A stretch of 64,000 nucleotides of DNA from contig CAZUES010000021.1 of assembly GCA_964619465.1 (NCBI GenBank), forward strand, positions 2,510 to 66,509, given 5' to 3'. This stretch comes from an uncultured Gemmatimonas sp. (GTDB lineage Bacteria > Gemmatimonadota > Gemmatimonadetes > Gemmatimonadales > GWC2-71-9). Below are positions 2,319 through 24,641 of this stretch, piece after piece (within the stretch, counting starts at the first letter, position 1; each line of letters begins with the position of its first letter). A program made the position numbers and the translations under genes. Below the pieces are notes generated by a model. The model was not told the DNA's origin and did no database searches. It was given only the letters and a program-made list of their open reading frames with translations.

Positions 2319-3572
2319 CTATCCGGAGCAGCCGACTCCCGCTGGCTCGAGCATGGCGAACCGGTCCCGAATGCCAGGCGGCGGCCCCGCGCCGCCCGCG
2401 AACGCCGCCGTCCGGAGCATCGCCAGGTGCGCGAGCGTCAGGTCGGGGTCACGGCTGATCAGATCAGCTGCTTGGCGAAGGGCCAGTTCGGCCCGCGCCG
2501 TATCCCGACGAGACACCGCAACCTCGGCCTGCAGGTAGGCCAGCAGTGCGGCGCCCGCCGCGAAGGTTGGGGCTGTCTCGAGCGCCGTCGTCAGGCGGGC
2601 GATGGCCCGGTCGTGGTCGGGCCCGTCACAGCTTCCAACGGTCCGAACCGCCTCGCGATAGGCACTGAAGGTTCGATGCCCCGGCGCCGAGGAGCTTCCC
2701 AGCCAGCGGAGAACCTGCGGATTGGTGAACGCCGAGAGACGGAGGGCCAGGCGGCGACCGTCGCCGGGCAGCGGCTCGGCGCGCATGGTTTCCTGCCACA
2801 GCGCGGCGCCGGTCGCCAGATGACGCAGCGTCACCCTAGTCCCGGTCGACCCGTCGGTCTCGGGGGCGAGCATCAGGCAGAGATGCGCGGCTGCCGGGTC
2901 TCCACAGGCGTCCGGAGCCGGCATGTCGGCCTGGATCGGCAGAACGTGACTCCCGGCCGCCAAGGCATCGACCAGTGCCTGGGCCTCCGGATTGGGCGGG
3001 GCGCCGATCAGGCGGACCCGCAGCGGGACGGGACCGATGGTCGCAGGCGGCGGAGCCCGACGTAGCGCGACTGCGAGGAGGGCTGTTCCCACCAAGAGTC
3101 CGAGCATGAGCAGGGTTCGCTGCCACCAGGTCCGAAGCCGCGGGGGCGCCGACACGGCCGGCGCATCGCTCCGGACGGCCTCGAGCCTGGCCTGGAGTCG
3201 GTATCCTTGTCCCCGGACCGAATCGATCAGCCGCGCCTCGTAGCCCGCCTCCTCCAGCGCCGCCCGAAGCAGGCGGATCCGCTGTTTCACCGTATCACTC
3301 GTAATAAACGTATCCGGCCAGACGGCCTGCTGGAGGTCCGCCCCGCTTACGTAGGCGGGACGCCGCTGGTCCAGCACTTCGAGGACCCGAAGGCTCAGGA
3401 ACGGCAGTTCCACCGGGTGCCCGCTCGGGCCATGGATGAGCCGGGCGGCCTGATCGATTCGAATCGTCTCGGCGGGTTCCTGGCCGTTCGGGGGCGTCAC
3501 CGTCGATTCACCGTTCTTCACGTTGCTTCTCTTGCTCCGACCGAGGCTGCTTCCCAATCTGAGGCCGCGCAT
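2319..3572 (-). CDS. Membrane-anchored CadC/ToxR-like transcriptional regulator (OmpR-type winged helix, one TM helix, periplasmic TPR-like domain)
   Basis: Winged-helix block: LSLRVLEVLDQRRPAYVSGADLQQAVWPDTFITSDTVKQRIRLLRAALEEAGYEARLIDSVRGQGYRL. It is followed by the TM helix TLLMLGLLVGTALLAVAL and a C-terminal domain of about 230 aa. Start chosen at the ATG at 3572; the longer track ORF would overlap the divergent gene. Confidence 0.7.
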   Translation of the reverse strand: MRGLRLGSSLGRSKRSNVKNGESTVTPPNGQEPAETIRIDQAARLIHGPSGHPVELPFLSLRVLEVLDQRRPAYVSGADLQQAVWPDTFITSDTVKQRIRLLRAALEEAGYEARLIDSVRGQGYRLQARLEAVRSDAPAVSAPPRLRTWWQRTLLMLGLLVGTALLAVALRRAPPPATIGPVPLRVRLIGAPPNPEAQALVDALAAGSHVLPIQADMPAPDACGDPAAAHLCLMLAPETDGSTGTRVTLRHLATGAALWQETMRAEPLPGDGRRLALRLSAFTNPQVLRWLGSSSAPGHRTFSAYREAVRTVGSCDGPDHDRAIARLTTALETAPTFAAGAALLAYLQAEVAVSRRDTARAELALRQAADLISRDPDLTLAHLAMLRTAAFAGGAGPPPGIRDRFAMLEPAGVGCSG

Positions 3573-3621
3573 GGTGCCGGCTGGACCGGCGGCTCGATTC
3601 CTTTCACGATGGGAAGCTCGA

Positions 3622-6309
3622 ATGTACTGGAACACGATGGTTCTCGCGCTGGCGGTGGGTGTCTCGGGGACGAGTCGGGACGAGGCCGGGGCCTGTATCA
3701 CCCCGCCGACCCACTGGTCGGACTATTACGGCGCGCTCGCGTTCGTCGAAACGCCCTTCGAAGACATGACCGGGATCCGTCGCCTGACGCGCGCGGAGGC
3801 CCGAGCGCAGAACCACTACCGGTTCGACTACGATCGGGGGGGGCGTCTGATCCGGCTGACCTTCGCGCTCGACGATACCCCGCGCGATCCGAACCATACC
3901 GCGAACTACCTCTACGAGTCGACGACGGTGGAGATTTGCCACGGGGAGGGATGGGAGCACCGCCGATTTCTCGATCGCGCGGGGAATCCGATGCTGGTTC
4001 GCGGTAACATCGCCGAAGAACGGTACACGCTCGACAGCCTCGGGTATCGGACCGGTCTGACCTTTCACGATCCGGACGGGCGTGCCGTCCAGAGCGGTTC
4101 CGGCGCGGCCCGCTTCGTCTGGCGGATGCAGAAGGACGGGACCGTGATCGAGGAACGGTTCGATTCGACCGGGGCCTTGGCCCCGCTGCGGTCGGGGTTG
4201 CCCTTCTATCGGACCCGTCTTCGCTTCGGCCCCAATGGATGGCTTGCTTTGTTCGAGAACGTCGACTCGGCGGGCGGCTTGGTGCGTAACGCGCTCGGCG
4301 CCGCTCAGGACAAGTTGGAGTACCGGAAGAACGGCGACATGATTGCCTGGAACGTCTACGACGAGCAGGAGCGGCGAGTCGAGGGCAACGGGCCGATGGT
4401 CGCGCGCGGGATCCGCGAGATGGATGGGCGCGGCTACGAAGCCGGGTTGTATTTCCAGGATCGGTACGGACGCGCGATGGCGAACGCCTACGGCTTCGAT
4501 CGCACCGAGACCACGTTCGATCGATTCGGCAACATCGTCGAGCGGACCAACTACGACGCGAACGGCCGGGCCGTCGACAACCCGCGCACCGGCTACGCTG
4601 GCTATCGATACCAATGGGACCGCAGCGGTCGTCGCGAGCTGGCCATGGAGTTCTTCGATGCCGGCGGTCGCGTGGTGGCGCATCAGGAGCGCGGGTATGC
4701 CCGAATGGAGCAACGCTACGACCGGCGCGGCAACCGGACCGAGATCCGCTATCTCGACCCGCGCGGCCGCCTGATTGCCAGGACGGACATCGGCGTCGCC
4801 CGGATCGTGATGGAGTACGACAGTCGGGACCGGCTTCGGCGACGGCGTTATCTCGATGCGGCCGGAGCGCCCGTCGCGCTGCGCGGCGCGAGCGAGGAAG
4901 CCTTTGCCTATCGGCCGGACGGATACCTGGATCGGGTCGTTCGGAATTCGTTCGTGGCCGGCGGCGCCGCGCACCAGGCGCGGCGCCCCGGTCCGGACCG
5001 CGTCCCGCTCGATACGGCGCTCGCCGCCGAGCTTGGCGCGATGCTGCTGGATGCTGCGGAGCTGCCCGGATTCGGGGTGGCGGCCCTGCAGGAAGGCAGG
5101 GTCGTCTATGCCCGCGGTTTCGGCTATCGGGATCTGGCCCGGCGGCTTCCCGTCGATTCCGGCACCGCGTTCCGCGCCGCCTCCGTGTCGAAGGTGGTGG
5201 CGGCGACCGCCGCCCTGGCACTCTATCAGCGCGGCGTGCTCGACCTCGATCGGCCTGTCGGACGCCTGCTGCCCGGCTATCCCGACTCGGCGGATGGCAT
5301 CACGGCACGGCGCCTGGCGGCCCATCTCGCCGGCCTGCCGCACTACGAATCCGGCGCCACGACCGACGGCCGCCATTATCCGACGGCCCGGGAGGCGCTC
5401 GGGATCTTTCGCGGCGCGAGGCCGGTCGGTGCGCCGGGAGAGCGATACCACTACAGCACCCACGGTTTCACGCTGCTGTCGGCTATGATGGAAGCCGCGG
5501 CGGACAAGCCAATCCTCGAGATCCTGACCGATGAAGTCCTGACGCCGCTCGGCATGGGGCGGACCGGCGGGGAACAGCGAAGCTCGCTGCCTCCCTACCT
5601 GACGGTTCTCTATCAGCGCGGACAGGGAGGGCTCGTCCCGATCACCCGCCCGACCGACTACAGCTACAGTTGGGCCGGCGCCGGTCTGCTCAGCACGCCG
5701 AGTGATCTGGTCCGGATGACGACGGCCTACTTCGACGGCAGGCTGCACGACTCGACGGTGCGGCTGGCGCTGACCCCGCAGCGGACCGCCGACGGTACCG
5801 ACATCGGGGTGGGCTTCGCCTGGCGCGTGGGCACCGATTGGCGAGGGCGCCGGATTGCGCACCATGCGGGGGTCACGCCGGGAACGCGGAGCGTGGTGCT
5901 GATGTATCCGGATCGCCAGACATCGGTGGCGCTGATGACCAATCGTAACTGGACCTCGTCGATCGAATCGACGGCCATGGTCCTGCTCGAGGCCCTGACC
6001 GCGTCCGAGCGACACGTGACCCATGGACCGGTCTCTACCGCCTGGACCGGGTCGTTCGCGGGCGACTCGGTTGCCGGCCACCTCCACCTGGTCGACGGGG
6101 CGGGGACGGTGACAGTGCCGCCGGTGCTGCGCGCCTTGTTTGCCAGGGACGGCACCGCGCCGGACGTGCTCCAACTGCGTGCAATCCGGAACGACCTCTA
6201 CGCGCTCGTCACGCCGTGGGGGCTGTATCCCGTGGTTGCGGAGCGCTCGGCGGGTCGGTTCCGGCTGCGAACCAACCTGGGCGCCCGCGAATGGATCATC
6301 ACGACCTGA
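3622..6309 (+). CDS. Secreted fusion protein: N-terminal YD/RHS-like repeat module (about 450 aa) plus C-terminal beta-lactamase-fold serine hydrolase
   Basis: Signal peptide MYWNTMVLALAVGVSG. Repeats include RFDYDRGGRLIRL, TTFDRFGNIVERTNYDANGRAV, YRYQWDRSGRRELAMEFFDAGGRVV and MEQRYDRRGNRTEIRYLDPRGRLI. The hydrolase half has S-x-x-K (FRAASVSKVVAAT), YHYSTHGF and HHAGVTPG. Confidence 0.8.
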   Translation: MYWNTMVLALAVGVSGTSRDEAGACITPPTHWSDYYGALAFVETPFEDMTGIRRLTRAEARAQNHYRFDYDRGGRLIRLTFALDDTPRDPNHTANYLYESTTVEICHGEGWEHRRFLDRAGNPMLVRGNIAEERYTLDSLGYRTGLTFHDPDGRAVQSGSGAARFVWRMQKDGTVIEERFDSTGALAPLRSGLPFYRTRLRFGPNGWLALFENVDSAGGLVRNALGAAQDKLEYRKNGDMIAWNVYDEQERRVEGNGPMVARGIREMDGRGYEAGLYFQDRYGRAMANAYGFDRTETTFDRFGNIVERTNYDANGRAVDNPRTGYAGYRYQWDRSGRRELAMEFFDAGGRVVAHQERGYARMEQRYDRRGNRTEIRYLDPRGRLIARTDIGVARIVMEYDSRDRLRRRRYLDAAGAPVALRGASEEAFAYRPDGYLDRVVRNSFVAGGAAHQARRPGPDRVPLDTALAAELGAMLLDAAELPGFGVAALQEGRVVYARGFGYRDLARRLPVDSGTAFRAASVSKVVAATAALALYQRGVLDLDRPVGRLLPGYPDSADGITARRLAAHLAGLPHYESGATTDGRHYPTAREALGIFRGARPVGAPGERYHYSTHGFTLLSAMMEAAADKPILEILTDEVLTPLGMGRTGGEQRSSLPPYLTVLYQRGQGGLVPITRPTDYSYSWAGAGLLSTPSDLVRMTTAYFDGRLHDSTVRLALTPQRTADGTDIGVGFAWRVGTDWRGRRIAHHAGVTPGTRSVVLMYPDRQTSVALMTNRNWTSSIESTAMVLLEALTASERHVTHGPVSTAWTGSFAGDSVAGHLHLVDGAGTVTVPPVLRALFARDGTAPDVLQLRAIRNDLYALVTPWGLYPVVAERSAGRFRLRTNLGAREWIITT

Positions 6310-9385: not shown

Positions 9386-9574
9386 CTCGGGAACTCGGAG
9401 ATCGGCGTGATCGCAGCAGGCCGGCGTGCCGACTTGGTGCTGCTCGACAGGAGCCCCTTGGAGGACATTGCCCATGCCGTGACTCTGGCCGGGGTCATGG
9501 TTCACGGGCGCCGGTATTCTCGTGACGATCTCGAGGCGTTCCTCGACGCGGTGGTGCGGAACGTCAATCCGTAG
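9386..9574 (+). pseudogene. C-terminal relic of an amidohydrolase gene
   Basis: LGNSEIGVIAAGRRADLVLLDRSPLEDIAHAVTLAGVMVHGRRY aligns with the C-terminus of the intact amidohydrolase at 13805-15361 (GTVEIGKRADLLIVDRDPRRDASAYDTIRAVILGGRLI). No catalytic N-terminal part lies upstream. Confidence 0.5.
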
Positions 9575-9625
9575 CGACCGGATCCGAGATGGGGAGACTC
9601 GAGTCGAGCGAGTCCCCCGATTAGG

Positions 9626-10138
9626 TCAACGGTCCCGCAGCAGCGCCCGTACCCGGGCCCGGACGGACGCCGTTTCACCGCGCGTGCCAGCCTCGAGGCA
9701 CGCGACGAAGTTGGGGTCGTCGCGGTGAATCACCGCCCAAGCATCCCACGCCCATGCCCGGACGAACGAGCGTGAGCTGGTCACGGCCCGAGCGACGAAA
9801 TGATCGAGCGCGGCCCGGTGGCTCGATTCCCAGCGGAGGTAGCGAAGCAGCTGGCAGCTGTGCAGTACGGCTTGCCAGTCCGCCAGGCGCGACAGGTAGC
9901 CGATCAGACGCGTGGTCTGGCGCTCGGTCGGAGGGTGACCGGACCGCGCCCACGCCAGGAGTAGCCAGGTCGCGCCGTTCTGTTTCCGCTTGTCGCCTAA
10001 GGCTACGAGGTCGAGCAATGTCTCCATCTCGCTCGGCGAGGGCGGTCCGGACGTGACGAGGCGGGTCAGGGAGGCGACTTCCCGGCCGTTCCATCCGAGC
10101 AACGTGTCGATGATGCGAGACATCGGAACTCTCTTCAC
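9626..10138 (-). CDS. Hypothetical cytoplasmic alpha-helical repeat (HEAT / AlkD-like) protein
   Basis: No signal peptide. Helical repeat text includes FVRAWAWDAWAVIHRDDPNFVACLEAGTRGETASVRARVRALL. Its start overlaps the upstream gene stop by 4 nt (ATGA at 10135-10138). Confidence 0.4.
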   Translation of the reverse strand: MKRVPMSRIIDTLLGWNGREVASLTRLVTSGPPSPSEMETLLDLVALGDKRKQNGATWLLLAWARSGHPPTERQTTRLIGYLSRLADWQAVLHSCQLLRYLRWESSHRAALDHFVARAVTSSRSFVRAWAWDAWAVIHRDDPNFVACLEAGTRGETASVRARVRALLRDR

Positions 10139-11079
10139 ATGCCGGATGGGAGGCGGCTCGTGCCATCGATTTGCCGCGGTCGTAGGTAGACCTTGCGTCG
10201 CATATAATCGTAGACGATGTGATAGTCGAGCAGGATGCCCTGGCCAAGGAGCGCTTCGATCGGGTGGGCGGGGCTCGCGACGGTGTTCGGCGTCCCTCGC
10301 ATCAGGACGACCGGCGGCCGCAGGTGCTCAAAGGGGCCGATCCGATACGACGCGAGCGTATCGAGGGCGCTGACGAACGGCTTGTCGTCCGAGCCGCGCT
10401 CGGTGACCTCGGGGTATGTCTTCGCCGGATCGATCAGGCCATACCGCGCCACGGCATCCGAATAGACGCTCGTATGGCGCATCGACCCGGAGTCGAGCAC
10501 AGTGAGGAGGCGCATGACGCGCCCGTCGGCCATGGTGAACGTCGACGTCGTGTAGATCAACCGGTTCGGTGCGATGGTGATATCGAGTGCGGTGTCGGTG
10601 CCGTCGGCGACGTATCGGTCGGCGGCATGGATGCGCATCGTCATGTCGTCGAAGTCGTGCTCGACGACGTAACGGCTGAACAGTTCGTAGCCGATCACTC
10701 CGTCGATCCGCCGGCCCAGAGCGGTGCTCATCGACCCCAGCGGGATGATCGTCAACGTGATCGCGGGGAGCACGACGGATCCGAATGCAACGGTGTTACC
10801 GGCTGACCATCGTGCCGGGATCGAACCGCCGGCGCCGGTGCTCGTGGTGGTACCGTCAACGATCAGACCGATGCGCTCCGCCGCGGACGAATCGATGGCC
10901 GTGCCGCCGGCTCCGCTGTCCAGGATGAACGTGAGGGAGTCCACGCCGTTCACGGCGACCGTGGTAACCACGAGCCGGCGCACCAAGTCGATCGGGCGTT
11001 GCACGGGCGGGGCGGACTCGGTCAGCGCGGTACATGCGGCGAGCATGGCAGCGGCGATGAGCATCGGATGAAGTATCAT
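10135..11079 (-). CDS. Retropepsin-like aspartyl protease lipoprotein with two D-S-G motifs in one chain
   Basis: Lipobox MLIAAAMLAACTA. Two catalytic-type motifs are present: TFILDSGAGGTAID and LTVLDSGSMRHTS. Confidence 0.65.
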   Translation of the reverse strand: MILHPMLIAAAMLAACTALTESAPPVQRPIDLVRRLVVTTVAVNGVDSLTFILDSGAGGTAIDSSAAERIGLIVDGTTTSTGAGGSIPARWSAGNTVAFGSVVLPAITLTIIPLGSMSTALGRRIDGVIGYELFSRYVVEHDFDDMTMRIHAADRYVADGTDTALDITIAPNRLIYTTSTFTMADGRVMRLLTVLDSGSMRHTSVYSDAVARYGLIDPAKTYPEVTERGSDDKPFVSALDTLASYRIGPFEHLRPPVVLMRGTPNTVASPAHPIEALLGQGILLDYHIVYDYMRRKVYLRPRQIDGTSRLPSGM

Positions 11080-11209
11080 CGATCGTTCCGGACGGGTATG
11101 ACTCGTAAATACGCAAACCTCCGACCCTGCGTTTTGCCGTTGGCCCCGGAGGCGCGACCGGTCGGCCCAGGGCGAGGAGATGATGCACGATATCGGATCC
11201 GCTGAGGGT

Positions 11210-11872
11210 TCAAAGCTTGTGACGTGCGGGCTGCCGTCGCAGCAATCCGAGGGCCCAAACGGACACGATCAGAAACCAGGACCCGACGAACGGTCCGCCG
11301 TCGACCAGTCCGGCCTCGCGAGGCGGAATCGGAAACGTCGCGAGGTTGAAGACCAGGGTAACGCCGGCGATGACGAGGCCGATCGCGCCGAGCACCCGCG
11401 CTCGACCGGGGCGGAGCGCAATGACGCCGGCAAAGAGCAGCGAGCCGATCAACACGTAGACGTCCCACGCGACGTCCAAGCCGAGTTGAACGGTCGCGAC
11501 CCCGGCTAGTATCGCGTGCCAGGTGCCAGCTGCGGATTCCGATGCGCCGGCGATCCGCTGGTTGAGGAGGACCACGCCCGAGGACTGGGTCAGGGTCATT
11601 GCCGTAAAGGAAGCGCCTGCGACGATTCCCCACGTCCGCGCGATGGCGAGAACGGCCCGTTGCCACGCGAGTTCCGTGGCCAAGGCCGCTTCCAGACCCA
11701 GGAACCCCGCCATGACCAGTGGACCGAACGCCACGTGAGCCAGGAAATCCACCCGATCGGGGAGGGGAAGGACGCTCCATGCGGTAAAGAGGAGGGCAGC
11801 GGTCAGACCCATCGCCGTGCCGAGGACGGCGAGCGGGCGCCGATCGGAGTCGTCATATCGCTTGCTCGACAT
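11210..11872 (-). CDS. Integral membrane protein (about 6 TM helices), family not recognised
   Basis: Only the last 220 codons of the 850-aa track ORF look coding, with hydrophobic helices such as LAVLGTAMGLTAALLFTAW and VLGAIGLVIAGVTLVFNL. ATG at 11872. An upstream start at MSLAS or MRAPW is possible. Confidence 0.5.
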   Translation of the reverse strand: MSSKRYDDSDRRPLAVLGTAMGLTAALLFTAWSVLPLPDRVDFLAHVAFGPLVMAGFLGLEAALATELAWQRAVLAIARTWGIVAGASFTAMTLTQSSGVVLLNQRIAGASESAAGTWHAILAGVATVQLGLDVAWDVYVLIGSLLFAGVIALRPGRARVLGAIGLVIAGVTLVFNLATFPIPPREAGLVDGGPFVGSWFLIVSVWALGLLRRQPARHKL

Positions 11873-12217
11873 TGGAGTGCTCCCCAGAGGTTCGACGATC
11901 CGGCATGCTGTCGGGGTGATCGGTCCGAGCCCTTCGAGGATCAGGAGCAGGGTGACCAGCCAGGGTGCGCGCATTCGGTCGAGCCGGGATGCGAGGCTCA
12001 TCGCGATCCCGAGTTGCCCTGTCTCACCGATGAGCTCTGCATGCTGATACGTATATCGGCCGACCGATGCTTCGCCGTTCGACCCGGGGCGACATCCGGT
12101 CGGCACACGAACCCATTCGTGGTGCAACAAGCGCGGGCTTCGGTTCGTCTTGCCGACAGCAGCCGGGCGATTCGGTTGCTCGGTACCGTTCGGTAAACCT
12201 ATGATCGGAAGGTGCGA

Positions 12218-13597
12218 ATGCTTCGCCTTACCCTCGTGCTCATTGTCCTCGCACCGGTCGCCGTCCAAGGGCAGGGGCTGCTGACGTGTTCGGCTCCGAC
12301 GGCCCATTGGTCCGACTATTACGCGGCGCTGGCTTTTTCCGAGACCCAGTTCGACGATATCCGGGGCACCCACCGGATGACGGCGGCCGAAGCAGCCGAG
12401 CGCAATCATTTCCGCTTCGACTACGATCGCAATCGCCGGCTGGTACGGGTCACATTCGCCTTGGGCAACACGCCTCGATCCGTCAATAACCACACCAGGA
12501 CATTTTTTTCCGAAACAGCGGTCGTGACGATCTGCCATCACGACGGCATGGAGGTCCGCCATTTCCTCGATGATCGAGGCAATCCGGCGCTGACCAAGGG
12601 CAACGTCGCGGAGGAGCGCTACGTACTCGATAGTCTCGGTTACCGAACGGCGCTCACCTTTCACGATGCCGCCGGCCAGCCCGTTCAGAACGGTTGGGGC
12701 ACGGCCCGGATTACGTGGGAGCGGCGCAAGGATGGAACCGTGATCGAACATCGGGTCGATGCTGCCGGTTCCCCGGCTCCGATCCGTCCCGGGTTTCCGT
12801 TTCACCGCCTTCGCTTCCATTACGGCCACAACGGCTGGCTCGTGCTGATGGAAAACATCGACTCGGCCGGCAACCTGGTACGGAGTCCGCAGCATGCGGC
12901 CCAGGATCATCTCGAATATCGTCCCACCGGCGAGATGCTGGCGTGGAATGTCTACGACGAATACGAAGCACGGGTAGAAGGCAATCCACCCAACGTCGCT
13001 CGCGGCATTCGGATCTACGACACCAACGGGTACCACCAGGAGCTTCGGCATCAGGATCGCCACTTCGGTCCGATGGCGGACGCGGGCGGAGTCGTTCGGT
13101 TGATCCACACGTTCGATCGCTTCGGGAACCTCGCCACTCGCCGCACCGCCGATTCGACGGGCCGAACCGTCATGTTGACGTCGGCCGGTTTCGCCACGGT
13201 GCGCGAAACCTGGGACGCCAGCGGGCTCCGCCATCTCCGGACCGAATTTCTCGATGCGGAGGATCGACCGGTACTGTCGCAGGGAGGGTTCGCGGCGATC
13301 GACCGGATCCATGACGATCGCGGCCTGGTGAGAGAGCTCCGATTCCTTGACGTCACTGGACGGCTCGCCTCGCGGGCCAACGGCGGCGTCGCCATTCAAG
13401 CCTTGGAGTATGATGCGCAGCGTCGTCTCACGCGGGTCCGATATCTGGACGCAAACCGCGCTCCCGTCGCGCTCCAGGGAGTGGCGGAGCAGGAGATCCG
13501 GTATCGACCGAACGGGTACATCGCGGGTGTAGTCCGGCGCGACCGTGAGGGCCGATCGATAGAGCCATCCACACCAGGTAATTCCAGACCGGAGTGA
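12218..13597 (+). CDS. Secreted YD/RHS-like repeat module, paralogue of the N-terminal half of 3622-6309; it lacks a hydrolase domain and is probably 3'-truncated
   Basis: It is co-linear with the 3622 gene from CSAPTAHWSDYYAALAFSETQFDD through RFDYDRNRRLVRVTFAL, ERYVLDSLGYRTALTFHD and FDRFGNL to YRPNGYIAGVV. The last 18 aa or so (DREGRSIEPSTPGNSRPE) have no counterpart. GGAAGG lies 5-6 nt before the ATG at 12218; the GTG at 12212 is an alternative start. Confidence 0.7.
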   Translation: MLRLTLVLIVLAPVAVQGQGLLTCSAPTAHWSDYYAALAFSETQFDDIRGTHRMTAAEAAERNHFRFDYDRNRRLVRVTFALGNTPRSVNNHTRTFFSETAVVTICHHDGMEVRHFLDDRGNPALTKGNVAEERYVLDSLGYRTALTFHDAAGQPVQNGWGTARITWERRKDGTVIEHRVDAAGSPAPIRPGFPFHRLRFHYGHNGWLVLMENIDSAGNLVRSPQHAAQDHLEYRPTGEMLAWNVYDEYEARVEGNPPNVARGIRIYDTNGYHQELRHQDRHFGPMADAGGVVRLIHTFDRFGNLATRRTADSTGRTVMLTSAGFATVRETWDASGLRHLRTEFLDAEDRPVLSQGGFAAIDRIHDDRGLVRELRFLDVTGRLASRANGGVAIQALEYDAQRRLTRVRYLDANRAPVALQGVAEQEIRYRPNGYIAGVVRRDREGRSIEPSTPGNSRPE

Positions 13598-13804: not shown

Positions 13805-15361
13805 TCATCGAGCGGTCCGCGTCCACCGAGCCGACAGGGTGTTCCGGTCGATCAGGCGCCCGCCAAGGATCACCGCTCGGATCGTGTCATAGGCGGATGC
13901 GTCCCGCCGCGGATCGCGGTCGACGATCAGCAGGTCGGCACGTTTGCCGATCTCGACGGTTCCGATTTCATGCCCGAGTCCGAATGCGGTTGCATTGCGA
14001 CGCGTCAGCGCGTCGAAGATCTCGAGTGGGGGGATCCCGGCCGCTGCCCAACCCTGGATTTCCAGGTAGCCGTTGAGGCCGGGCGGATTGCCGATGCCGT
14101 CGGCAGCCGGTGTGTCCGTACCGAAGAGCAGGGGGATCCCCGCAGTTCGGTAGCGCCGCATCATGGTGCGAACGCGCGCCCTGAACACCTCCAGGTAGTG
14201 GACGGCCGGCGTGGTGTCGGCGGGAATCAGCTTGGCGTACAGCGCGTGGAGGTCGCGTTGAGCACGGCGGCCGGAATCGGTGCGGGCCCAGGCGATCCAC
14301 ACCGGTGGAAGCACGTCAGGGAGCCCGGGGTGGTCGATCAGCTGCCAGGTCCAGGTGTCGTATTCGCCTTCGATGACGCGGAGGGTCGGTTGTACGGCGA
14401 TCTGGCGCTGCGAGAGTTCGCGAATCACGCGCTCCACGGCTTGCGAAGGGATCGTGTCCAGTCGGGGGCCGGGCCAGTGCCAGAGCCCATGCGCGATGAG
14501 ATCGACTCCGGCCGCGAGTCCGGCCTCGTACCCGTCGAGACCGGTGGCGTGCAACATCAGAGGTAGACGATGTACTCGGGCAGCTCGACCGATCCGTGCC
14601 AGCAGATCCGCCGCCGGCGTCGGCCAGGCGAACGCGCCGCCGAAGCCGGATTCGTGATACGTCTTGATGCATTGTGCCCCCTCGGCCGTCAGGCGGGCGA
14701 CCAGCGCCTCCGGGGTGTGACGCTCGAGATCGACCGAGTCCGGGATGGTCGCTCGCTGGGCATCATCGAAGGTCCAGATCGGGAAGAGTCGTAGGCGCGC
14801 GGCGTTGGGGAACAGCGCGGGGCCGTAGCCGTCGTAGTGCCGGATGCCACGCCCGCAGGAGACGACGGAGGGGACCGCCGACAACGCTTCCCATCTGGCG
14901 CGGGTGCTCGCGCGGAGGTCGGGATCGACCACCGTCGTGAAGCCAAAATAGAGCAGGCTCCGGGGCACCTGGTTGTGATAGCTGCGGACCAGATCCGGGT
15001 GCGACTCGGCCTCGTCGTCCGAGATCGGGAGGTGGCCGATGTGGACGTGGCCGTCGATCAGACCGGGGATGAGAAAACGGCCGCCGAGGTCCAATTCCCG
15101 TACCCCCGACCGGGTGGGAGGCGCGCCGTTCCCGATCCACGCGATGCGACCGTTCTCGATCAGGACCGAGGCGTCCTTCAGCGGCTCGGCGCGCTCGGCC
15201 GACACCACAGTGACGCGTCGAAGGAGCAGGTCGGGCTCCTGGGCTGCGAGTCGCTCCGGCCCGAGCGGGGTGCCTGCTGCTGCGGTACAGGCCGTGGCCA
15301 GACCCCAGCTAAGCTGGCGGAGGCGGGCTCGTGCGCGCGGCCCGATCGTGACGAGAACCAT
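13805..15361 (-). CDS. Secreted metal-dependent amidohydrolase (amidohydrolase_1 superfamily)
   Basis: Signal-like N-terminus, then RVTVVSAE...VLIENGRIAWIG and the HxH metal motif GLIDGHVHIGH. C-terminal block GTVEIGKRADLLIVDRDP. Confidence 0.8.
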   Translation of the reverse strand: MVLVTIGPRARARLRQLSWGLATACTAAAGTPLGPERLAAQEPDLLLRRVTVVSAERAEPLKDASVLIENGRIAWIGNGAPPTRSGVRELDLGGRFLIPGLIDGHVHIGHLPISDDEAESHPDLVRSYHNQVPRSLLYFGFTTVVDPDLRASTRARWEALSAVPSVVSCGRGIRHYDGYGPALFPNAARLRLFPIWTFDDAQRATIPDSVDLERHTPEALVARLTAEGAQCIKTYHESGFGGAFAWPTPAADLLARIGRAARVHRLPLMLHATGLDGYEAGLAAGVDLIAHGLWHWPGPRLDTIPSQAVERVIRELSQRQIAVQPTLRVIEGEYDTWTWQLIDHPGLPDVLPPVWIAWARTDSGRRAQRDLHALYAKLIPADTTPAVHYLEVFRARVRTMMRRYRTAGIPLLFGTDTPAADGIGNPPGLNGYLEIQGWAAAGIPPLEIFDALTRRNATAFGLGHEIGTVEIGKRADLLIVDRDPRRDASAYDTIRAVILGGRLIDRNTLSARWTRTAR

Positions 15362-15760
15362 CCCCTTCTAGACGGAGATGGCGCCGCAGGGTTTCATCCC
15401 GGTCCATGTCGGATCACGAATGGTCGCAGGAGTGGGACGTGAGGGCACTGTGTGATGCGGCGGTGCTTCGTCCTGGTCGCCTCGGAGGGGCATGGGTGCT
15501 CCAGCCACATCGTGATCTGTCGGATCGGACGAAGCTCCGACTTCTCGATCGGGAAAATCGGGAGCGATTTTCCGAATGCGCCGCGGGTCGAGCGGTTGGA
15601 TGGCCGATTCCAACGGGAATAGGGCGATCGAATCGAGGTACTGGCTGTGCTAAGTTCGGGGGGCCGCGGTCCCCGGTCCGACGGTGGTCATTCGACCACA
15701 GATTGCCAGATTGCCGGACTTCGAGATGAACCATATGGACGGTGGGAGTGCCTCGCCGGG

Positions 15761-16768
15761 ATGCTTGCTCATTATTACTTCGATCCGGATGGACCCGGGG
15801 CTGCGCTCGCAGTCGTCAAGGACGGCGCGGCACCGATGGTGGAATGCGTCGGTCTCGCCGATGTCGAGGGCGGGGTCCCGATCACGCCGGACACGGTCTT
15901 CGAGCTCGGCAGCGCTTCCAAGACGTTCACGGCGACGGCCGTCCTGCTGGCGGCCGAGCGCGGCCGCCTCGATCTGAGCTCCCCGGTCGGCGCGTACCTG
16001 CCGATCTGGCGAAATGGCGTTGCGGGACGGCCGGTGACGGTCGCCGATCTGCTCCGGCATACCTCGGGTTTGCATGATTATCTCGAGGCGGGGCCGTACC
16101 AGACGCCGCTCGATGAACTGCGCATGGCGTCGGTGCTCGATCGCCTGCCCGACTGGTCGCATTCGGCCGTGCCGGGGCTCGCCTTCCGCTACTCCAACAC
16201 CAACTACGTCGTGCTTGCCCACCTGCTGGAGACAGTAGTCGGGCAGCCGTTCGCCGAGTTCGTTGCGGACCATCTGATCCGTCCGTTCGGCCTTCGCTCG
16301 ACAGCGGTAGATCCCGAGCGGGTGACCGTTGTCGGTCGGGTGGCTTGCGGCTATCACAACCGGGGCTTCGGGTTTCCGCTTGTGGTGCCCAGTAACCCAT
16401 GTCCTTGCGACACGTACGGCGACGGGGGAATGCTCAGCACGTTGAACGACCTGCTCCGTTGGCAGTCGTGCTTCTGGGAGAGCAAGATCCTGGCGGAGTC
16501 CTCGCTGCGGCTGATGCGAAGCCGGGGACAGTTGGATTCGGGGGAACGGTTCGACTACGGTCTGGGTCTGCAGGTCGAGAAACACGATCAGGACGATGCT
16601 TGGTACGGCCACGGCGGCAGCTGGACCGACACTACCACCCTGATCGGCAGGTACGCGAACGCTCGCACGACCATCATCGTGCTCTCGAACGAGTTCATGG
16701 CGCCGGTGGAGCGCATAGCGCAACGCGCGTTCGCGTTGACGCGAGATCGGGACGAGCGGTCGTTCTGA
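15761..16768 (+). CDS. Beta-lactamase-fold serine hydrolase (class C / esterase-like)
   Basis: S-x-x-K (FELGSASKTFTATAV), Y-x-N (FRYSNTNYVVL) and HGGSW. Start chosen at the ATG at 15761. Confidence 0.8.
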   Translation: MLAHYYFDPDGPGAALAVVKDGAAPMVECVGLADVEGGVPITPDTVFELGSASKTFTATAVLLAAERGRLDLSSPVGAYLPIWRNGVAGRPVTVADLLRHTSGLHDYLEAGPYQTPLDELRMASVLDRLPDWSHSAVPGLAFRYSNTNYVVLAHLLETVVGQPFAEFVADHLIRPFGLRSTAVDPERVTVVGRVACGYHNRGFGFPLVVPSNPCPCDTYGDGGMLSTLNDLLRWQSCFWESKILAESSLRLMRSRGQLDSGERFDYGLGLQVEKHDQDDAWYGHGGSWTDTTTLIGRYANARTTIIVLSNEFMAPVERIAQRAFALTRDRDERSF

Positions 16769-18379: not shown

Positions 18380-19525
18380 GTGACGATATCTCGGCGGATC
18401 GTCGATCTCAGACGGCGTTGGCCACCGTGGCCATTGTGGGTGGGGTCCGCCGCGCTCTGGGCCTTCCTCACGGCGACGATCGTGTCATCCAATCTCGAGA
18501 GCGCCACCCGGACGGGGCGGGGCATTTCGATCGTCACCATCACGATCTATGTCTTGATCGGTACCGTTCCGTGGGCGTTTTCGATGCCGCTCCTGGTATG
18601 GTTCTCCGCCAAGCGGCTCGTCGTCGGTCCTCGGCCTTGGCGGCATCTGGTGCAGATCCTCGTCCTCTCCCTGGCCTGGCTCGCCGTGGCAACGATCGCG
18701 ACGCATGCGCTCCGGGCTGCCGTGGCCGGCCGGTCGTTCGGCGAGCAGATCGCACAGTGGGTGGTCTCGAGCGGCTGGGCCACGGTGGTGATCGAGTACT
18801 GGACGCTGGTGCTCTACGCGGTATTCGGACAGGCGATCGGCTTCTGGGATCGAACACGTCAACGGGAGCGCGAGCTGGCACGTGCCGCGACCGAGCGCGC
18901 CGAACTGGCGGGGGCACTCACGCAAGCGCAGCTTGCGAATCTGCGGATGCGGGTGCACCCGCATTTCATCTTCAATTCGCTCAACTCGGTCGCGGCGTTG
19001 ATCCGTCGCGGCGACGATACTAGGGCGGTCGAGATGGTCGTCGGCCTCGCGGACCTGATGCGAGCCGTGCTCAGCGACGGCAGTTTGCCCGTCCATTCCC
19101 TCGGTGAGGAAGTCGCGCTCTTGACGCGTTACCTCGACGTCCAACGCATGCGGTACGGCGATCGGGTCAGTCTCACTATCGTGATTCCGGATGCGCTGCG
19201 GGACAGTTCCATCCCGACGTTGCTACTGCAGCCTCTGGTCGAGAACGCCGTGCGGCACGGGATCGCGGAGTTGCCCGAGGCCGCGGAGATCCGGGTATCC
19301 GCCGAACGGACGCCGGAGCGTCTCGTCGTGACGGTGACCAACGATGGCCCGCCTCTGCCGTCGGGGTTCGATCCGGAGCGCGTCACCGGGCTCGGTCTGG
19401 CGCTGGTCCGCCGCCGCCTCGGCTTGTGGGGCGACCGGTCCGGGACGCTGGCGCTGCGCAATACTCCGACCGGTGTCGAGGCGGCTATATCTCTGCCGGC
19501 AAGCCCCATTGCGGAGCAACCGTGA
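18380..19525 (+). CDS. LytS/YehU-type sensor histidine kinase (His_kinase PF06580 type)
   Basis: Four to five N-terminal TM helices, then the H-box region LRMRVHPHFIFNSLNSVAALI and the ATPase blocks LLLQPLVENAVRHG and GLGLALVRRRL. The start is uncertain: GTG at 18380 or ATG at 18254. Confidence 0.8.
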   Translation: MTISRRIVDLRRRWPPWPLWVGSAALWAFLTATIVSSNLESATRTGRGISIVTITIYVLIGTVPWAFSMPLLVWFSAKRLVVGPRPWRHLVQILVLSLAWLAVATIATHALRAAVAGRSFGEQIAQWVVSSGWATVVIEYWTLVLYAVFGQAIGFWDRTRQRERELARAATERAELAGALTQAQLANLRMRVHPHFIFNSLNSVAALIRRGDDTRAVEMVVGLADLMRAVLSDGSLPVHSLGEEVALLTRYLDVQRMRYGDRVSLTIVIPDALRDSSIPTLLLQPLVENAVRHGIAELPEAAEIRVSAERTPERLVVTVTNDGPPLPSGFDPERVTGLGLALVRRRLGLWGDRSGTLALRNTPTGVEAAISLPASPIAEQP

Positions 19526-20340
19526 TTGATCTCCGGATCCTGATCGTCGACGACGAGCCGCTGGCCCGCGATAACCTCCGCCTCATGCTGGAAAACCGTC
19601 CCGCCTGTCGAGTCATCGGCGAAGCGGCCAATGCGACGGCAGCGTGGCGCTGGCTCGAGAACCATCGGGTGGACGTGGTGTTCCTCGACATTCAGATGCC
19701 GGGGATCAACGGGATCGATCTCGCCAGTACGTTGAGTGGCCCAGCCCGGCCGCTGATCATCTTTGTCACGGCGTACGAGGAGTTTGCATTAGCGGCGTTC
19801 GGCGTGAGCGCCGCGGACTACCTACTCAAGCCCTATGACGAGGCCCGGCTGGCGCTGGCCCTGGAGCGAGCGGCGGAGCGCCACGCTGAGCGGCTCAGCC
19901 ATGCCGCCCTGTCCGCCGTCGACGGCGTGGTCGAAGACCTGCGGACCAACGGATCGGCCGCCCAGCTCGTCTCGGCCGGCGAGGACGGACCGAACGGACC
20001 GTCCGACCGCCGTCTGATCGTTCGTGACGGCCGCCGCGTATTCTATATCCCGTATCGCGAGATTCTCTGGTTCGAGACGTCGCGCAATTATCTCCGGGTC
20101 CATACGGCGCAGCGGTCGCACCTGTTACGCCAGCCGTTACGCGAGCTCGAACAAATCCTCGATCCCGCGCTGTTCATCCGGGTCCATCGCCGAGCCGTTG
20201 TCAATCTGGATCATGTGGCCGAAGTCCGAGCCGGGTTTCGGGGCGACTACCGGATCCGGATGACCTCGGGCGCTTCGGTGACGCTCAGCCGGCGCCGTCG
20301 CGACGCGATCGCGCAGCTGATGGCTCGGCACCGGCCCTGA
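19522..20340 (+). CDS. LytR/AlgR-family response regulator (REC + LytTR DNA-binding domain)
   Basis: GTG start in a GTGA overlap with the kinase stop. REC motifs ILIVDDEP and VVFLDIQMPGINGIDL. LytTR block: RVFYIPYREILWFETSRNYLRVHT...FIRVHRRAVVNLDHV. Confidence 0.85.
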   Translation: MIDLRILIVDDEPLARDNLRLMLENRPACRVIGEAANATAAWRWLENHRVDVVFLDIQMPGINGIDLASTLSGPARPLIIFVTAYEEFALAAFGVSAADYLLKPYDEARLALALERAAERHAERLSHAALSAVDGVVEDLRTNGSAAQLVSAGEDGPNGPSDRRLIVRDGRRVFYIPYREILWFETSRNYLRVHTAQRSHLLRQPLRELEQILDPALFIRVHRRAVVNLDHVAEVRAGFRGDYRIRMTSGASVTLSRRRRDAIAQLMARHRP

Positions 20341-20408
20341 CCGACCGGGCCGCCGGCTGAGGACGTCCGGCGGCGGACCGAACCATGATACCCTCACGCA
20401 GGAGTCCG

Positions 20409-20969
20409 ATGATGTCTCATGTTCGTCGATGGCCTTTGCTCGTTCTCGGTGCGATCCTGGCGCTCGCTCGCCCCGCCGCGGGGCAGGATCGCGCGGCGGG
20501 CACGACGGTGGTCGTCCTGGTGCGCCATGCGGAGCGCGCCTCCGACGGCGGTGCGGATCCGTCGTTGACGGCGGTCGGCCGCGCCCGGGCGGACGAGCTG
20601 GCGGCGCTATTGGGCAAGGCCGAGGTAACCGGGATCCTGACGACGCCTTTTGCCCGGACGCGAGAGACGGCTGCGCCATTGGCACAGGCGCGCGACCTCG
20701 AGGTTCGGGCCGTGCCGGTAGCCGGCGGGCTTACGGCGCACGTCGCTCAGACGGTAGAAGCGATTCGAGGACCGCTCGCCGGCGGCACCGTGCTCGTCGT
20801 CGGTCATGGCAACACGGTGCCGGGAATCCTGAGCGCCCTTGGCGGGCCCGCCATTCCCACGCTGTGCGAGGCGGCCTACGACCGACTCTTCATACTGGTG
20901 CTGGAACCGGGGCAGTCGCCTCGGTTTCTGGAGACGCGGTATGGCGGGCCGAGCGAGGCTTGCAGCTAG
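20409..20969 (+). CDS. Histidine phosphatase superfamily (SixA / PGAM-like) protein with a signal peptide
   Basis: GGAG lies 5 nt before the ATG at 20409. Signal peptide MMSHVRRWPLLVLGAILALARPAAG. Catalytic motifs VVLVRHAER, TRETA and VVGHGNT. Confidence 0.7.
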   Translation: MMSHVRRWPLLVLGAILALARPAAGQDRAAGTTVVVLVRHAERASDGGADPSLTAVGRARADELAALLGKAEVTGILTTPFARTRETAAPLAQARDLEVRAVPVAGGLTAHVAQTVEAIRGPLAGGTVLVVGHGNTVPGILSALGGPAIPTLCEAAYDRLFILVLEPGQSPRFLETRYGGPSEACS

Positions 20970-22195: not shown

Positions 22196-22247
22196 TCCGA
22201 CCGGGTCCGAGTGACGATAGTCTTCAGCCTAGCGGAGTAGAGGCACC

Positions 22248-23315
22248 ATGAGCATGGTATTCGATGGCACTCGGCGCTTGGCGCGATCCGGCGGGCTCGC
22301 GATCGCATTGACCGCCTTGGCGGCAGGATGCGATCCGGCGCAGGGACAGGAGTACCTGTACGTCCAGAACAGTCGCGGCGGCGACATCACCGTCATCTCG
22401 ATTCCCCGACACGAGATCGTCGGCACCATCCCCGCCTCCAAGGTCGGCAAGGTGCCCGACGACGTAGTACCCTCGACCGACGGCACCAAACTGTTCATTC
22501 CGCGGATCGAAGGCGAGGATGTCCTCGTCATCAGTACCGAAACCGAAGAAGTGTTGTATACCGTTCCAGTCGGCGGGACGCCGCATCACGTCACGGTCTC
22601 CCGCGACGATCGGTTTCTGTACGTGCCGATCTTCAACGATGCGTTCGTTGAGGTCATCGACCTTGAGCAGCGGAAAGTCGTAGCCCGCGTGCCGGTCGGG
22701 TACGGCCCGCATGGAACGATTCTGTCCGCCGACGGCAAGCGCGTCTATGTCGGGAACATTCTGAGCGAGCGGATGGCCGTGATCGAAGTCGGGACGCACC
22801 GGCTGGTCAAGGGGATCGAGATGCCCGAAGGCGTTCGGCCGTTCCAGGTCGCGCGAGACGAGAAGAAACTTTGGGCTCAGATCTCCAAGATGCACGGGTT
22901 CGTCGAGGTCGATCTCGCAACCGACCGCGTCACCAAGACGATTCATCTTCCCACCCTCGGAAAGACGGTGCCTGTCGAGGCCTACGCCGCCTTCCCTCAT
23001 ACCATCGGGCACGGGATGTGGCTGACCGGCGACGGGAAGCTACTGTTCGTGGCCGCCACGCTCTATGACTTCGCGGCGGTCTACTCGGTTCCAACGATGG
23101 ATCTCGTGGCGACGATCCCGACCGGGAAAGAGCCCGGGTGGATGGCCTGCAACCGGAGCAGCACCTACTGCTATACCTCGAACCGTGGTGACAACACCCT
23201 GTCCGTCATCTCGGTGGCCGAGAAGAAGGAGATCAAGCGGCTCGACGTCGGGAATTTTCCGCAACGGATGAACACGGCGTTGGTGCCGCGGCGCGCGGTG
23301 AGGAGTGACCGATGA
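22248..23315 (+). CDS. YVTN/YncE-type beta-propeller repeat lipoprotein
   Basis: Lipobox LTALAAGCD. Repeated blocks of about 40 residues: YVQNSRGGDITVISIP, VVPSTDGTKLFIP, VTVSRDDRFLYVP, ILSADGKRVYVGN and YTSNRGDNTLSVISV. Confidence 0.75.
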   Translation: MSMVFDGTRRLARSGGLAIALTALAAGCDPAQGQEYLYVQNSRGGDITVISIPRHEIVGTIPASKVGKVPDDVVPSTDGTKLFIPRIEGEDVLVISTETEEVLYTVPVGGTPHHVTVSRDDRFLYVPIFNDAFVEVIDLEQRKVVARVPVGYGPHGTILSADGKRVYVGNILSERMAVIEVGTHRLVKGIEMPEGVRPFQVARDEKKLWAQISKMHGFVEVDLATDRVTKTIHLPTLGKTVPVEAYAAFPHTIGHGMWLTGDGKLLFVAATLYDFAAVYSVPTMDLVATIPTGKEPGWMACNRSSTYCYTSNRGDNTLSVISVAEKKEIKRLDVGNFPQRMNTALVPRRAVRSDR

Positions 23316-24484
23316 ATGGGATGGCGCGCAGGATCGTGACGGTCGCGGCGCTCTGGGCGGGGGGCGTCGCGATCGCTGTTGCGCAGCCGGCGCCGTACTA
23401 TCCGGGGGCGGCGCCGAACTGGGAGCGCCGGTCGCCCGCGGCCGTGGGGATGGACTCGATTGCGCTGCGCCAGGCGATCGCCTACGCGCTGGCCAACCCG
23501 TCCGGGCTTCTCCGGGCCCAAACGGTCGAGGAGGCAATCGCCACGCAGGAGCGCGGGCTCGCGGCCTCGAACGAGCCCGACCCCAAAGTGATCGGGCCGA
23601 TGATGGTCCACAAGAATGTCAACGGGCTCGTGATCCGGCGCGGGTACATCGTGGCGGAGTTTGGCGATACCAAGTTCGTCGATCTCACGGCGAGTCTCAC
23701 CAAGAGCATTCTGTCGCTGACGGCCGGTGTCACGTTCGATCAGGGGTTGATCCGGCACCTCGACGATCGCGTCGGCGAGTCGATTCGCGATGGCGGGTTC
23801 GATTCGCCCCACAACGCCAAGATCACATGGCGGCAGCTGCTGCAGCAAACCAGCGAGTGGGAAGGGACGCTGTGGGGCAAACCCGATCTGAACGATCGAA
23901 GGACCCGGCGCGGTAAACCGCATAATCTCGGGGAGCCGGGCACGTTCTGGGACTACAACGATGTCCGGGTCAATCGCCTGGCACTGGCGCTCCTCCGTCT
24001 CTGGCAGCAACCGCTGCCCCAGGTCCTGGCCGAGCACATCATGACGCCCATCGGCGCCACGCCGACCTGGGAGTGGCACGGCTACGACAATTCGTGGGTC
24101 AAGATCCGCGGTGTGAATGTGCAATCCGTGAGCGGCGGGGCGCACTGGGGCGGCGGGTTCTGGGTGAGCGCCGAAGACCTCGGCCGGATCGGCCTCCTTT
24201 TCCTGCGAAACGGCAAATGGAACGATCGGCAGCTTCTTTCGCCCGAATGGATCCGGATGTCCGTCACGCCGACCGAGATCCGACGCGATTATGGGTTTTT
24301 GTGGTGGCTCAATACGGATCACCGGTTCTCCAAGAGGAGCCCGACGTCGTCGTACGCGATGCGAGGTGGCGGCGGCTTCTATTGCTGGATCGATCCGGTC
24401 AACGAGCTCGTCATCGTGGTGAAGGCGCTCGGCGGAGATCTCGGCCAGTTCGTCGATCTCATCACGGCGTCGATCGTACAATGA
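23312..24484 (+). CDS. Secreted beta-lactamase-fold serine hydrolase
   Basis: ATGA overlap with the propeller gene. Signal peptide, S-x-x-K (DLTASLTKSILSL) and the C-terminal family block SYAMRGGGGFYCWIDPVNELVIVV. Confidence 0.8.
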   Translation: MNGMARRIVTVAALWAGGVAIAVAQPAPYYPGAAPNWERRSPAAVGMDSIALRQAIAYALANPSGLLRAQTVEEAIATQERGLAASNEPDPKVIGPMMVHKNVNGLVIRRGYIVAEFGDTKFVDLTASLTKSILSLTAGVTFDQGLIRHLDDRVGESIRDGGFDSPHNAKITWRQLLQQTSEWEGTLWGKPDLNDRRTRRGKPHNLGEPGTFWDYNDVRVNRLALALLRLWQQPLPQVLAEHIMTPIGATPTWEWHGYDNSWVKIRGVNVQSVSGGAHWGGGFWVSAEDLGRIGLLFLRNGKWNDRQLLSPEWIRMSVTPTEIRRDYGFLWWLNTDHRFSKRSPTSSYAMRGGGGFYCWIDPVNELVIVVKALGGDLGQFVDLITASIVQ

Positions 24485-24641
24485 CCGTGCTGCGTGCGGT
24501 GGCGCTCATCAGCGGATCACGGTTCGAGGCAACGTTGGGAATCTGTTCGATGTGGCCTTTTCACGAAGCGCCCTTCATTTATCCCGGTTCGGCCATCTGG
24601 CCGAGTGACGGGCGCACCGCTCAGTTGTCTGCGGAGGTGCA

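Follow-up and report, generated by a model that had tools for sequence, protein, structure and literature searches.

A 64,000-nucleotide stretch of contig CAZUES010000021.1 from an uncultured Gemmatimonas sp. (hereafter the window) was analyzed with a focus on one gene (3622..6309, + strand; 895 amino acids (aa) plus stop), in which a signal peptide, a module of YD-type repeats and a serine hydrolase follow each other in a single polypeptide. The N-terminal approximately 420 aa are predicted to form an open, single-layer strip of beta hairpins and not an Rhs shell, and the C-terminal approximately 430 aa appear, from sequence and model, to be an intact S12 hydrolase of the LACTB/Pab87/D-aminopeptidase-like type with a lipocalin-like end domain. 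We read the product as an exported two-part protein, in which the YD strip would serve the S12 hydrolase as a non-catalytic binding or targeting partner under the control of a regulator, and we give this reading as a whole about even chances. Functional coupling of strip and hydrolase is well supported, because the adjacency of the two genes is conserved, their translation is often coupled, and three independent fusions tolerate either order. Physical coupling is probable, and, like it, the proposed binding by the strip, the type of substrate and the tie to the regulator are inferred. So far, YD/RHS repeats are known almost exclusively as closed toxin-encapsulating shells (Rhs, Tc) or as the teneurin shell, and the approximately 420-aa open strip is a testable case of such repeats as the accessory module of an enzyme. 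It also offers a starting point for finding the function of a large uncharacterized "beta-lactamase family" group of soil and marine bacteria, which is routinely mistaken for resistance genes.

The strip covers aa 25-443 (3694..4950, + strand) and was delimited by motifs, the model TIGR01643 and an AlphaFold2 prediction. The N-terminal half of the protein contains 14 motifs of the type [YFWLH]Dxx[GDNR], compared with 2.5 ± 1.5 in shuffled sequences (0 of 2000 shuffles reached 14), and 17 DxxG motifs, compared with 3.5 ± 1.7; the C-terminal half holds only one and two of them, respectively. The NCBIfam model YD_repeat_2x (TIGR01643) reached 23.4 bits at a cut-off of 15.8 in three stretches and was the sole NCBIfam match on the N-terminal half. 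A Pfam check on both halves had been proposed in the initial annotation, which was made from the sequence alone. While it was clearly positive for the hydrolase (see below), RHS_repeat (PF05593) remained below its gathering score on the fused protein (16.7 versus 22 bits), yet passed in a paralog within the window (25.4 bits) and was precomputed as a match for approximately half of the homologs. The AlphaFold2 model, built from a 31-sequence alignment, is all-beta with 13 hairpins of a period of approximately 32-33 aa between aa 32 and 443 (predicted local distance difference test score (pLDDT) 88.6, predicted template modeling score (pTM) 0.85). Repeats were thus rightly recognized at the outset, but "at least nine" was an undercount considering 13 modeled hairpins and 14 motifs. 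The lag autocorrelation of the N-terminal half was marginally above that of shuffles (best lags 65, 34, 67 and 33; -0.43 versus a shuffle maximum of -0.49). Since sequence periodicity alone is weak, the repeat claim rests on the motif counts and the model.

In a Foldseek search with the strip model, the top PDB matches were Rhs effectors, Tc BC cocoons and teneurins (E 2e-13 to 3e-7, probability 1.0 for most), followed by engineered OspA single-layer sheets. When the predicted strip was compared with the shells as a whole, template modeling (TM) scores did not exceed 0.29 at root-mean-square deviations of 12-27 Å, that is, the fit is good locally, but the overall curvature is not the same. As modeled, the strip would therefore be locally YD-like, yet not superimposable on any stretch of a shell. 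As had been supposed, the module is too short for a closed shell, with 13 hairpins in approximately 410 aa versus 660 to approximately 2,150 residues in the matched chains. No DPxG[LWI] motif occurs anywhere in the 895 aa, no Rhs-core model of NCBIfam matched the N-terminal half, and no PAAR, VgrG or TcA was found among the window neighbors tested, all of which agrees with the initial annotation. Instead of a delivery or immunity context, the neighbors are peptidases, a regulator, and SnoaL-like, DJ-1/PfpI, amidohydrolase and PF00144 genes. The window strip shares with the Rhs, Tc-BC and teneurin shells the repeat signature and, in the predicted model, the local hairpin architecture, and these shells are its best structural matches, but it comes without the Rhs core, the aspartyl autoprotease, the plug, the PAAR/VgrG/TcA partner and the encapsulated toxin of these systems. 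In addition, and unlike in the shells, a non-repetitive signature that is specific to the family occupies approximately the first two thirds of the module.

With respect to the hydrolase half, the S12 / PF00144 beta-lactamase-fold domain was assigned to aa 465-795 (5014..6006, + strand) and contains S521-x-x-K524, Y611-S-T and H748-A-G. The Pfam match to PF00144 spans aa 478-777 with 199 bits at a gathering score of 27 (E 1.5e-58). Together with the passing TIGR01643 match, this bears out the initial assignment of the two halves. The hydrolase had been placed at residues of about 520-895; the fold and all three motifs proved intact, but the domain starts earlier, and the last approximately 90 aa make up a beta domain of their own with eight strands (aa 804-894; 6031..6303, + strand) that is common to the whole approximately 475-aa hydrolase family. 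The codons of S521-V-S-K524 (5182..5193, + strand) encode the predicted nucleophile serine and general-base lysine. S521/K524 and the other two motifs align with ASISK, YST and HTG of human LACTB, so that the alignment of the S-x-x-K with a catalytic serine holds, and they are invariant in an 18-sequence family alignment. The best structural matches of the full model were Pab87, Lip3, SurE, IS11 and DAP, all of them two-domain enzymes, together with LACTB and the R61 DD-peptidase. Identity as an AmpC resistance enzyme was considered and rejected: the model bla_class_C scored 50.5 bits versus a cut-off of 415, and all named AmpC families stayed far under their cut-offs. The NCBIfam models for D-aminopeptidase (77 bits) and AmpH (62 bits) scored above bla_class_C, both below their own cut-offs. 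The 120 listed homologs of the hydrolase are 317-550 aa long, mostly approximately 470-490 aa with signal peptides of their own, and all are unfused; among them, YD sequence occurs only in P0033, as a short in-frame remnant.

The YD module likewise belongs to a family of stand-alone proteins. A homology search returned 30 YD homologs (P0001-P0030) of 406-468 aa with 34-56% identity, an alignment coverage of 77-92% of the query and a signal peptide each, and PF00144 or a fusion was found in none of the 30. At all invariant columns of the family alignment, the window protein has the shared residue. Among the invariant residues, which lie in the first two thirds of the strip, are F41, E43, H65, E177, R179, R190, D230, W243 and N256; AAQD and GNGPxVARG are further motifs of the family signature. 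The module is made up of two parts, namely a family-specific, non-repetitive region (the first two thirds, approximately) and a generic YD-like tail (the last third). The closest relative of the fused module, and its sister in the tree, is the unfused paralog P0005 in the same window (12218..13597, + strand; 459 aa, 55% identical, own signal peptide); for both halves, the nearest homologs are encoded in Gemmatimonadota metagenome-assembled genomes (MAGs), which together with the G+C content of the window points to a probable origin in that phylum.

A profile was also run against 1.84 billion representatives, which yielded 4,915 matches. Those that match the whole module in a single stretch are approximately 370-465 aa long, and most of the top matches are proteins of 1,000-3,000 aa that hit only profile positions of approximately 260-437, repeatedly. 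P0153 and approximately 100 others of 1,000-3,000 aa consist almost entirely of an approximately 33-aa hairpin, GYA...YD..G...Y.D..G.P, in 7-18 stretches. Four such long proteins were scanned, of which three stayed below every Pfam gathering score and P0270 barely passed those of RHS_repeat and DUF1508. In total, thousands of long proteins of the same 33-aa hairpin turned up, which current Pfam models barely cover, and these arrays look like a large and poorly covered repeat class. A distant homolog of the strip was found in P0031 (690 aa, Methylacidiphilales MAG; 24% identity), the C-terminal approximately 230 aa of which resemble several membrane-spanning segments, and the strip may be membrane-anchored in this protein.

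The gene arrangement around YD genes was surveyed by tblastn of three window proteins against fetched loci and by the called genes of further contigs. Genome loci were found with an 11-sequence subset of the YD alignment, and the metagenome collection gave two, one of which (L017) is probably a duplicate of L004. Of the 19 YD loci, 3 had PF00144 fused to the YD module, 7 had it in the adjacent gene, 2 had it at a distance of one gene and 7 lacked it, and the adjacency of YD and hydrolase genes is conserved in four phyla. Normally, two genes are the rule and fusion is the exception, with separate exported proteins of approximately 440 and 475 aa. A divergent ToxR-like regulator gene (- strand) followed by the YD and then the hydrolase gene was found in the Maricaulis, Marinicaulis and other alphaproteobacterial MAGs (L006, L008, L009, L012), and in L006, L009 and L012 the stop and start codons of the two genes overlap by 4 nucleotides (ATGA). 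In the Maricaulis locus L006, YD occupies 9959-11335 and the hydrolase 11332-12768. In L012, the YD gene (9878-11264, Marinicaulis MAG) is split into overlapping open reading frames (ORFs; 9878-10570 and 10392-11264) by a frameshift or a sequencing error, and a second, distant YD-like gene lies at 19588-20820. The metagenome contig L002 has the ToxR-like regulator (- strand), then the hydrolase, then the YD gene, and contig L014 has a Trans_reg_C gene (638 aa, same strand), YD and hydrolase (PF00144). In an Allomuricauda MAG (L011), an AraC gene, YD and two PF00144 genes follow each other. In a Cyclobacteriaceae MAG (L010), the order is PF00144 with a type IX secretion system sorting domain, beta-propeller, YD, a 199-aa ORF, YD and amidohydrolase. 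The remaining loci contained the ToxR-like regulator (- strand) with YD only in Gemmatimonadaceae and Gemmatimonadales MAGs (L003 and L004), a LytS-type kinase and LytTR (- strand) before YD on two metagenome contigs (L013, L015), AraC, YD, GH18 and PIG-L on a further contig (L016), and AraC, YD, DUF418 and an S9 peptidase in a Bacteroidia MAG (L007).

Most loci have a regulator gene as the immediate neighbor of YD, or of hydrolase and YD together. Its type is ToxR-like (Trans_reg_C) in Gemmatimonadota, Alphaproteobacteria and Acidobacteriota, and AraC or LytS/LytTR elsewhere. That these regulators belong to three unrelated types argues for the YD gene as a regulated output rather than a ToxS-like co-sensor. 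Enzymes related to N-acetylglucosamine recurred as well: GH18 and PIG-L lie directly downstream of YD in L016 (6322-8535), and in L019 GH85 (762-2840) is encoded two genes upstream of the fusion, which may hint at a glycan or cell-wall context.

Fused proteins occupy three separate positions in a neighbor-joining tree of YD modules, in which the Acidobacteriota fusions form a monophyletic clade, the window module pairs with its own unfused paralog, and the L005 module pairs with an unfused protein. Fusion thus occurred at least three times independently, and in both orders. In the window protein, the signal peptide is followed by YD and hydrolase, whereas L005, from an uncultured Gemmatimonas MAG, encodes a single 885-aa ORF with the reverse order of signal peptide, hydrolase and YD. 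At its junction, the hydrolase end (REWVMEA) directly joins the mature YD start (DGLLTCAP), and the YD signal peptide is gone. P0196 (848 aa, Acidobacteriota MAG) is a YD-hydrolase fusion that is 32% identical to the window protein lengthwise, with one hairpin fewer. It belongs to a fused Acidobacteriota clade of 11 proteins, the other ten of which are 811-935 aa long and 46-53% identical to P0196. In the two contexts that were looked up (P0196 and P0307), a Trans_reg_C gene of 548-640 aa lies immediately upstream. An internal signal peptide is absent from every fusion. This loss speaks against read-through or assembly errors, because neither a frameshift nor the loss of a stop codon would have eliminated the signal peptide; the fusions are real and, in the Acidobacteriota clade, long-maintained. 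The earlier suggestion that the YD module serves the hydrolase was thus strengthened by the adjacency in four phyla and by at least three independent fusions in either order. The stand-alone YD family, the paralog in the window, the ToxR-like regulator, the lipocalin-like domain and the exceptional status of the fusion are all absent from the initial annotation.

In the window, an open frame extends on the + strand from 3523 to 6309, and the G+C content at third codon positions (GC3) is 0.82 from stop to stop; the window itself has a G+C content of 63-69%. Translation may start at the in-frame ATG 3622 (895 aa) or at ATG 3571, which would add 17 aa (912 aa) and is still in frame in the relative L001, with a 9-nucleotide indel. 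An N-terminal export signal was assigned to aa 1-24 (3622..3693, + strand), in part by inference, with the hydrophobic core MVLALAVGV. Clear signal peptides are present in all homologs of either half. C25 and C106 are the sole cysteines of the 895-aa protein, and their columns are gained or lost jointly across the YD family alignment, a covariation which suggests a C25-C106 disulfide in the fused protein. Considering this covariation and the signal peptides of all homologs, export with one disulfide is likely. Identity as a lipoprotein was rejected, as there is no consistent lipobox before C25 family-wide and C25 co-occurs with C106. Strip and hydrolase are joined by a disordered linker of approximately 20 aa (aa 444-464; 4951..5013, + strand; pLDDT below 50 for aa 445-459), which is composed of the C-terminal tail of a YD protein and the mature N-terminal tail of a hydrolase, the hydrolase signal peptide being absent. 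The first residues of the fused protein, MYW, resemble the MYR[FLY] start of several unfused hydrolases, but three residues are no evidence.

Taken together, we suggest that two formerly separate genes were welded into one polypeptide with loss of the hydrolase signal peptide. An envelope or extracellular cue would switch the cassette on via the regulator, which is presumably the membrane-anchored ToxR-like protein in the window lineage. The strip, itself non-catalytic, would then bind the substrate, present it or hold the enzyme in position, and Ser521 would cleave an amide or ester bond, the likeliest substrate being a D-amino-acid peptide from peptidoglycan or from a secreted non-ribosomal peptide or lipopeptide.

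Several observations weigh against this reading. In the syntenic relative L001, where an M28 peptidase, the regulator and the fused-gene ortholog P0033 (488 aa; 9486-10952) follow in order, P0033 retains the same signal sequence, approximately 30 YD residues and the whole hydrolase, and it has lost approximately 410 aa of YD sequence via two in-frame deletions. The first deletion extends from about C25 to about C106; the 3' one is flanked by two CTCGA microhomologies. Since the strip was lost and the hydrolase kept, the YD module is dispensable at least in cis. The ratio of nonsynonymous to synonymous substitution rates (dN/dS) between the hydrolase halves of the window and L001 is 0.16 at a dS of 0.68; the hydrolase is under purifying selection, which we count in favor of the reading. 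Moreover, the 7 of 19 YD loci without PF00144 nearby contain GH18 and PIG-L, DUF418 and S9, or a regulator alone, which implies a function of the strip in its own right, and the conserved polar residues in its N-terminal half could be an active or binding site unrelated to the hydrolase. A full-length AlphaFold2 model with an unpaired alignment (pLDDT 92.3, pTM 0.66) shows the disordered linker and no confident interface; such a model would be weak evidence on the interface either way. Finally, the signal peptide of the window protein, which had been noted before and was found present, is weak: its hydrophobic core is short, and the start codon is ambiguous.

Some of these observations fit other explanations. 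The YD protein could mainly bind or trap an extracellular or periplasmic molecule, for example a glycan, an antimicrobial peptide or a fragment of peptidoglycan, with its own regulated expression and the hydrolase as one of several interchangeable enzymes. For this, we see the position of the regulator, which adjoins the YD gene rather than the hydrolase gene in most loci, the other partners (GH18 with PIG-L, DUF418 with S9, and GH85 upstream in L019), and the invariant polar signature of the family, which falls outside the generic repeats. However, three independent fusions, all to the same LACTB-like subfamily, argue for a specific partnership, and we consider such a trap unlikely. Secreted proteinaceous inhibitors of beta-lactamase-fold enzymes exist in the form of BLIP and BLIP-II, and the strip might correspondingly be a latency or inhibitor module (a pro-domain or BLIP-like) that masks the hydrolase and shields the envelope of the producer until export, proteolytic release or ligand binding. 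Operon overlap and fusion would provide the stoichiometric coupling that is needed here, and the L001 hydrolase, still under purifying selection after the loss of the strip, is presumably functional alone. An inhibitor is nevertheless improbable in our view, given YD genes without a hydrolase gene nearby, two fusion orders that both work with a flexible linker lacking a recognizable cleavage site, and the lack of a confidently predicted interface.

That the fusion is an artefact, either by an assembly error or indel joining adjacent genes or as a decaying gene, could be argued from the large deletions in L001 and from the exact window protein not being on record in the collections searched. 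The junction without a hydrolase signal peptide, which a simple frameshift or lost stop would have kept, makes this very unlikely. Furthermore, both L001 deletions are in frame and its ortholog would still export the hydrolase via the shared N-terminal signal, the window protein conforms at every invariant YD column with a GC3 of 0.82 over the whole frame, and independent fusions were found elsewhere. A miniature Rhs or Tc toxin, in which the repeats encapsulate or deliver the C-terminal cargo, is barely conceivable even though the N-terminal half found its best Foldseek matches among the shells of Rhs, Tc and teneurin proteins. The low TM-scores, the short module and the missing DPxGL motif, Rhs core, PAAR, VgrG and TcA described above stand against it, the would-be cargo is a folded 430-aa enzyme usually equipped with a signal peptide, and the parts are also found as separate genes and as a reverse-order fusion. 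The reading of the strip as a partner of the hydrolase can also be extended: regulator, YD strip and S12 hydrolase could form an unrecognized, widespread extracytoplasmic module, in which the strip would capture a D-amino-acid peptide or a cell-wall-derived polymer and hand it to the hydrolase, while the regulator senses the same molecule. This extension, which would cover Gemmatimonadota, Alphaproteobacteria, Acidobacteriota and Bacteroidota, with a lipopeptide or peptide antibiotic of a competitor as one candidate molecule, is quite doubtful. If true, YD repeats would have a second, non-encapsulating role as ligand-binding partners of secreted enzymes.

For comparison with known systems, the window protein is by sequence a member of both PF00144 and the YD-repeat class, and it most resembles, by analogy, an S12 hydrolase with an accessory domain. 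Pab87 (a CubicO peptidase, PDB 2qmi), which is the top structural match across both domains of the hydrolase half, Ochrobactrum DAP (1ei5) and SurE (6ksu) share the PF00144 fold, the SxxK/Yxx/Hxx-G motifs and a C-terminal beta domain. However, they are only approximately 20% identical and have no YD partner, and the window enzyme is probably exported. LACTB (PDB 7v21, 7ulw) is the best PDB sequence match (E 6e-27) with aligned catalytic motifs, and the Joint Genome Institute labels several members of the hydrolase family accordingly; in contrast to the window protein, it is a eukaryotic, mitochondrial and filament-forming enzyme without the C-terminal beta domain or a YD module. In the Paenibacillus S12 DL-peptidases Lip3 and Lip7, an accessory beta-rich domain builds the substrate cavity, the substrates are lipopeptides, and there is no beta-lactamase activity (PMC12903863). 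The resemblance to Lip3/Lip7 (PDB 9sn1) would be a functional analogy, as a secreted S12 enzyme with a beta module that serves the PF00144 catalytic domain, but their accessory domain is unrelated to YD and always C-terminal, and motif III is KGG instead of the HAG of the window enzyme. Our literature search found no paper on an architecture of YD repeats and beta-lactamase or on YD repeats in Gemmatimonadetes. In line with the initial annotation, the sole database name for the fusion is "serine hydrolase domain-containing protein", and the architecture is rare and uncharacterized.

The regulator gene (2319..3572, - strand) lies directly upstream of the fused gene on the opposite strand, a placement that is kept in related loci. 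It resembles ToxR/CadC-type regulators in its N-terminal winged helix (Trans_reg_C), a single membrane-like segment (aa 139-158 of the 404-aa form) and a C-terminal extracytoplasmic part of approximately 245 aa, but its sensor domain matched none of the curated models. Its start candidates are 3572, 3557 and 3521. The palindrome CATG at 3570-3573 contains a candidate ATG for both the regulator (- strand, 3572) and the fused gene (+ strand, 3571), and the starts of the two coding sequences may adjoin or overlap.

Among the neighbors of the fused gene are the M28 peptidase, the ToxR-like regulator, a SnoaL-like gene, an M23 peptidase, DJ-1/PfpI, an aspartyl protease, the amidohydrolase and PF00144 genes, and exported hydrolases (M28, M23, DJ-1/PfpI, aspartyl protease, amidohydrolase) are unusually numerous in this region. 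The amidohydrolase gene (13805-15361, - strand) is the sole gene between the unfused YD paralog and a plain PF00144 gene (15647..16768, + strand; assigned by its Pfam match), which is 25% identical to the fused hydrolase half. Besides the fused gene, the PF00144 genes within 26 kb are this one and those at 23309-24484 and 24609-26234, all on the + strand, and a YNCE/lactonase-like beta-propeller gene (22233-23315) runs straight into the PF00144 gene at 23309-24484. A LytS-type histidine kinase (PF06580; 18254-19525) and a LytTR response regulator (19426-20340), both on the + strand, represent the regulator type that adjoins stand-alone YD genes in L013 and L015. ARAGORN called a 94-nucleotide tRNA-Gln (10805-10898, - strand) inside the aspartyl-protease ORF (10135-11079), which the Rfam tRNA model did not match and which is probably a false positive. 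For tRNA-Met (1716-1789) and tRNA-Val (38418-38492), ARAGORN and Rfam agree.

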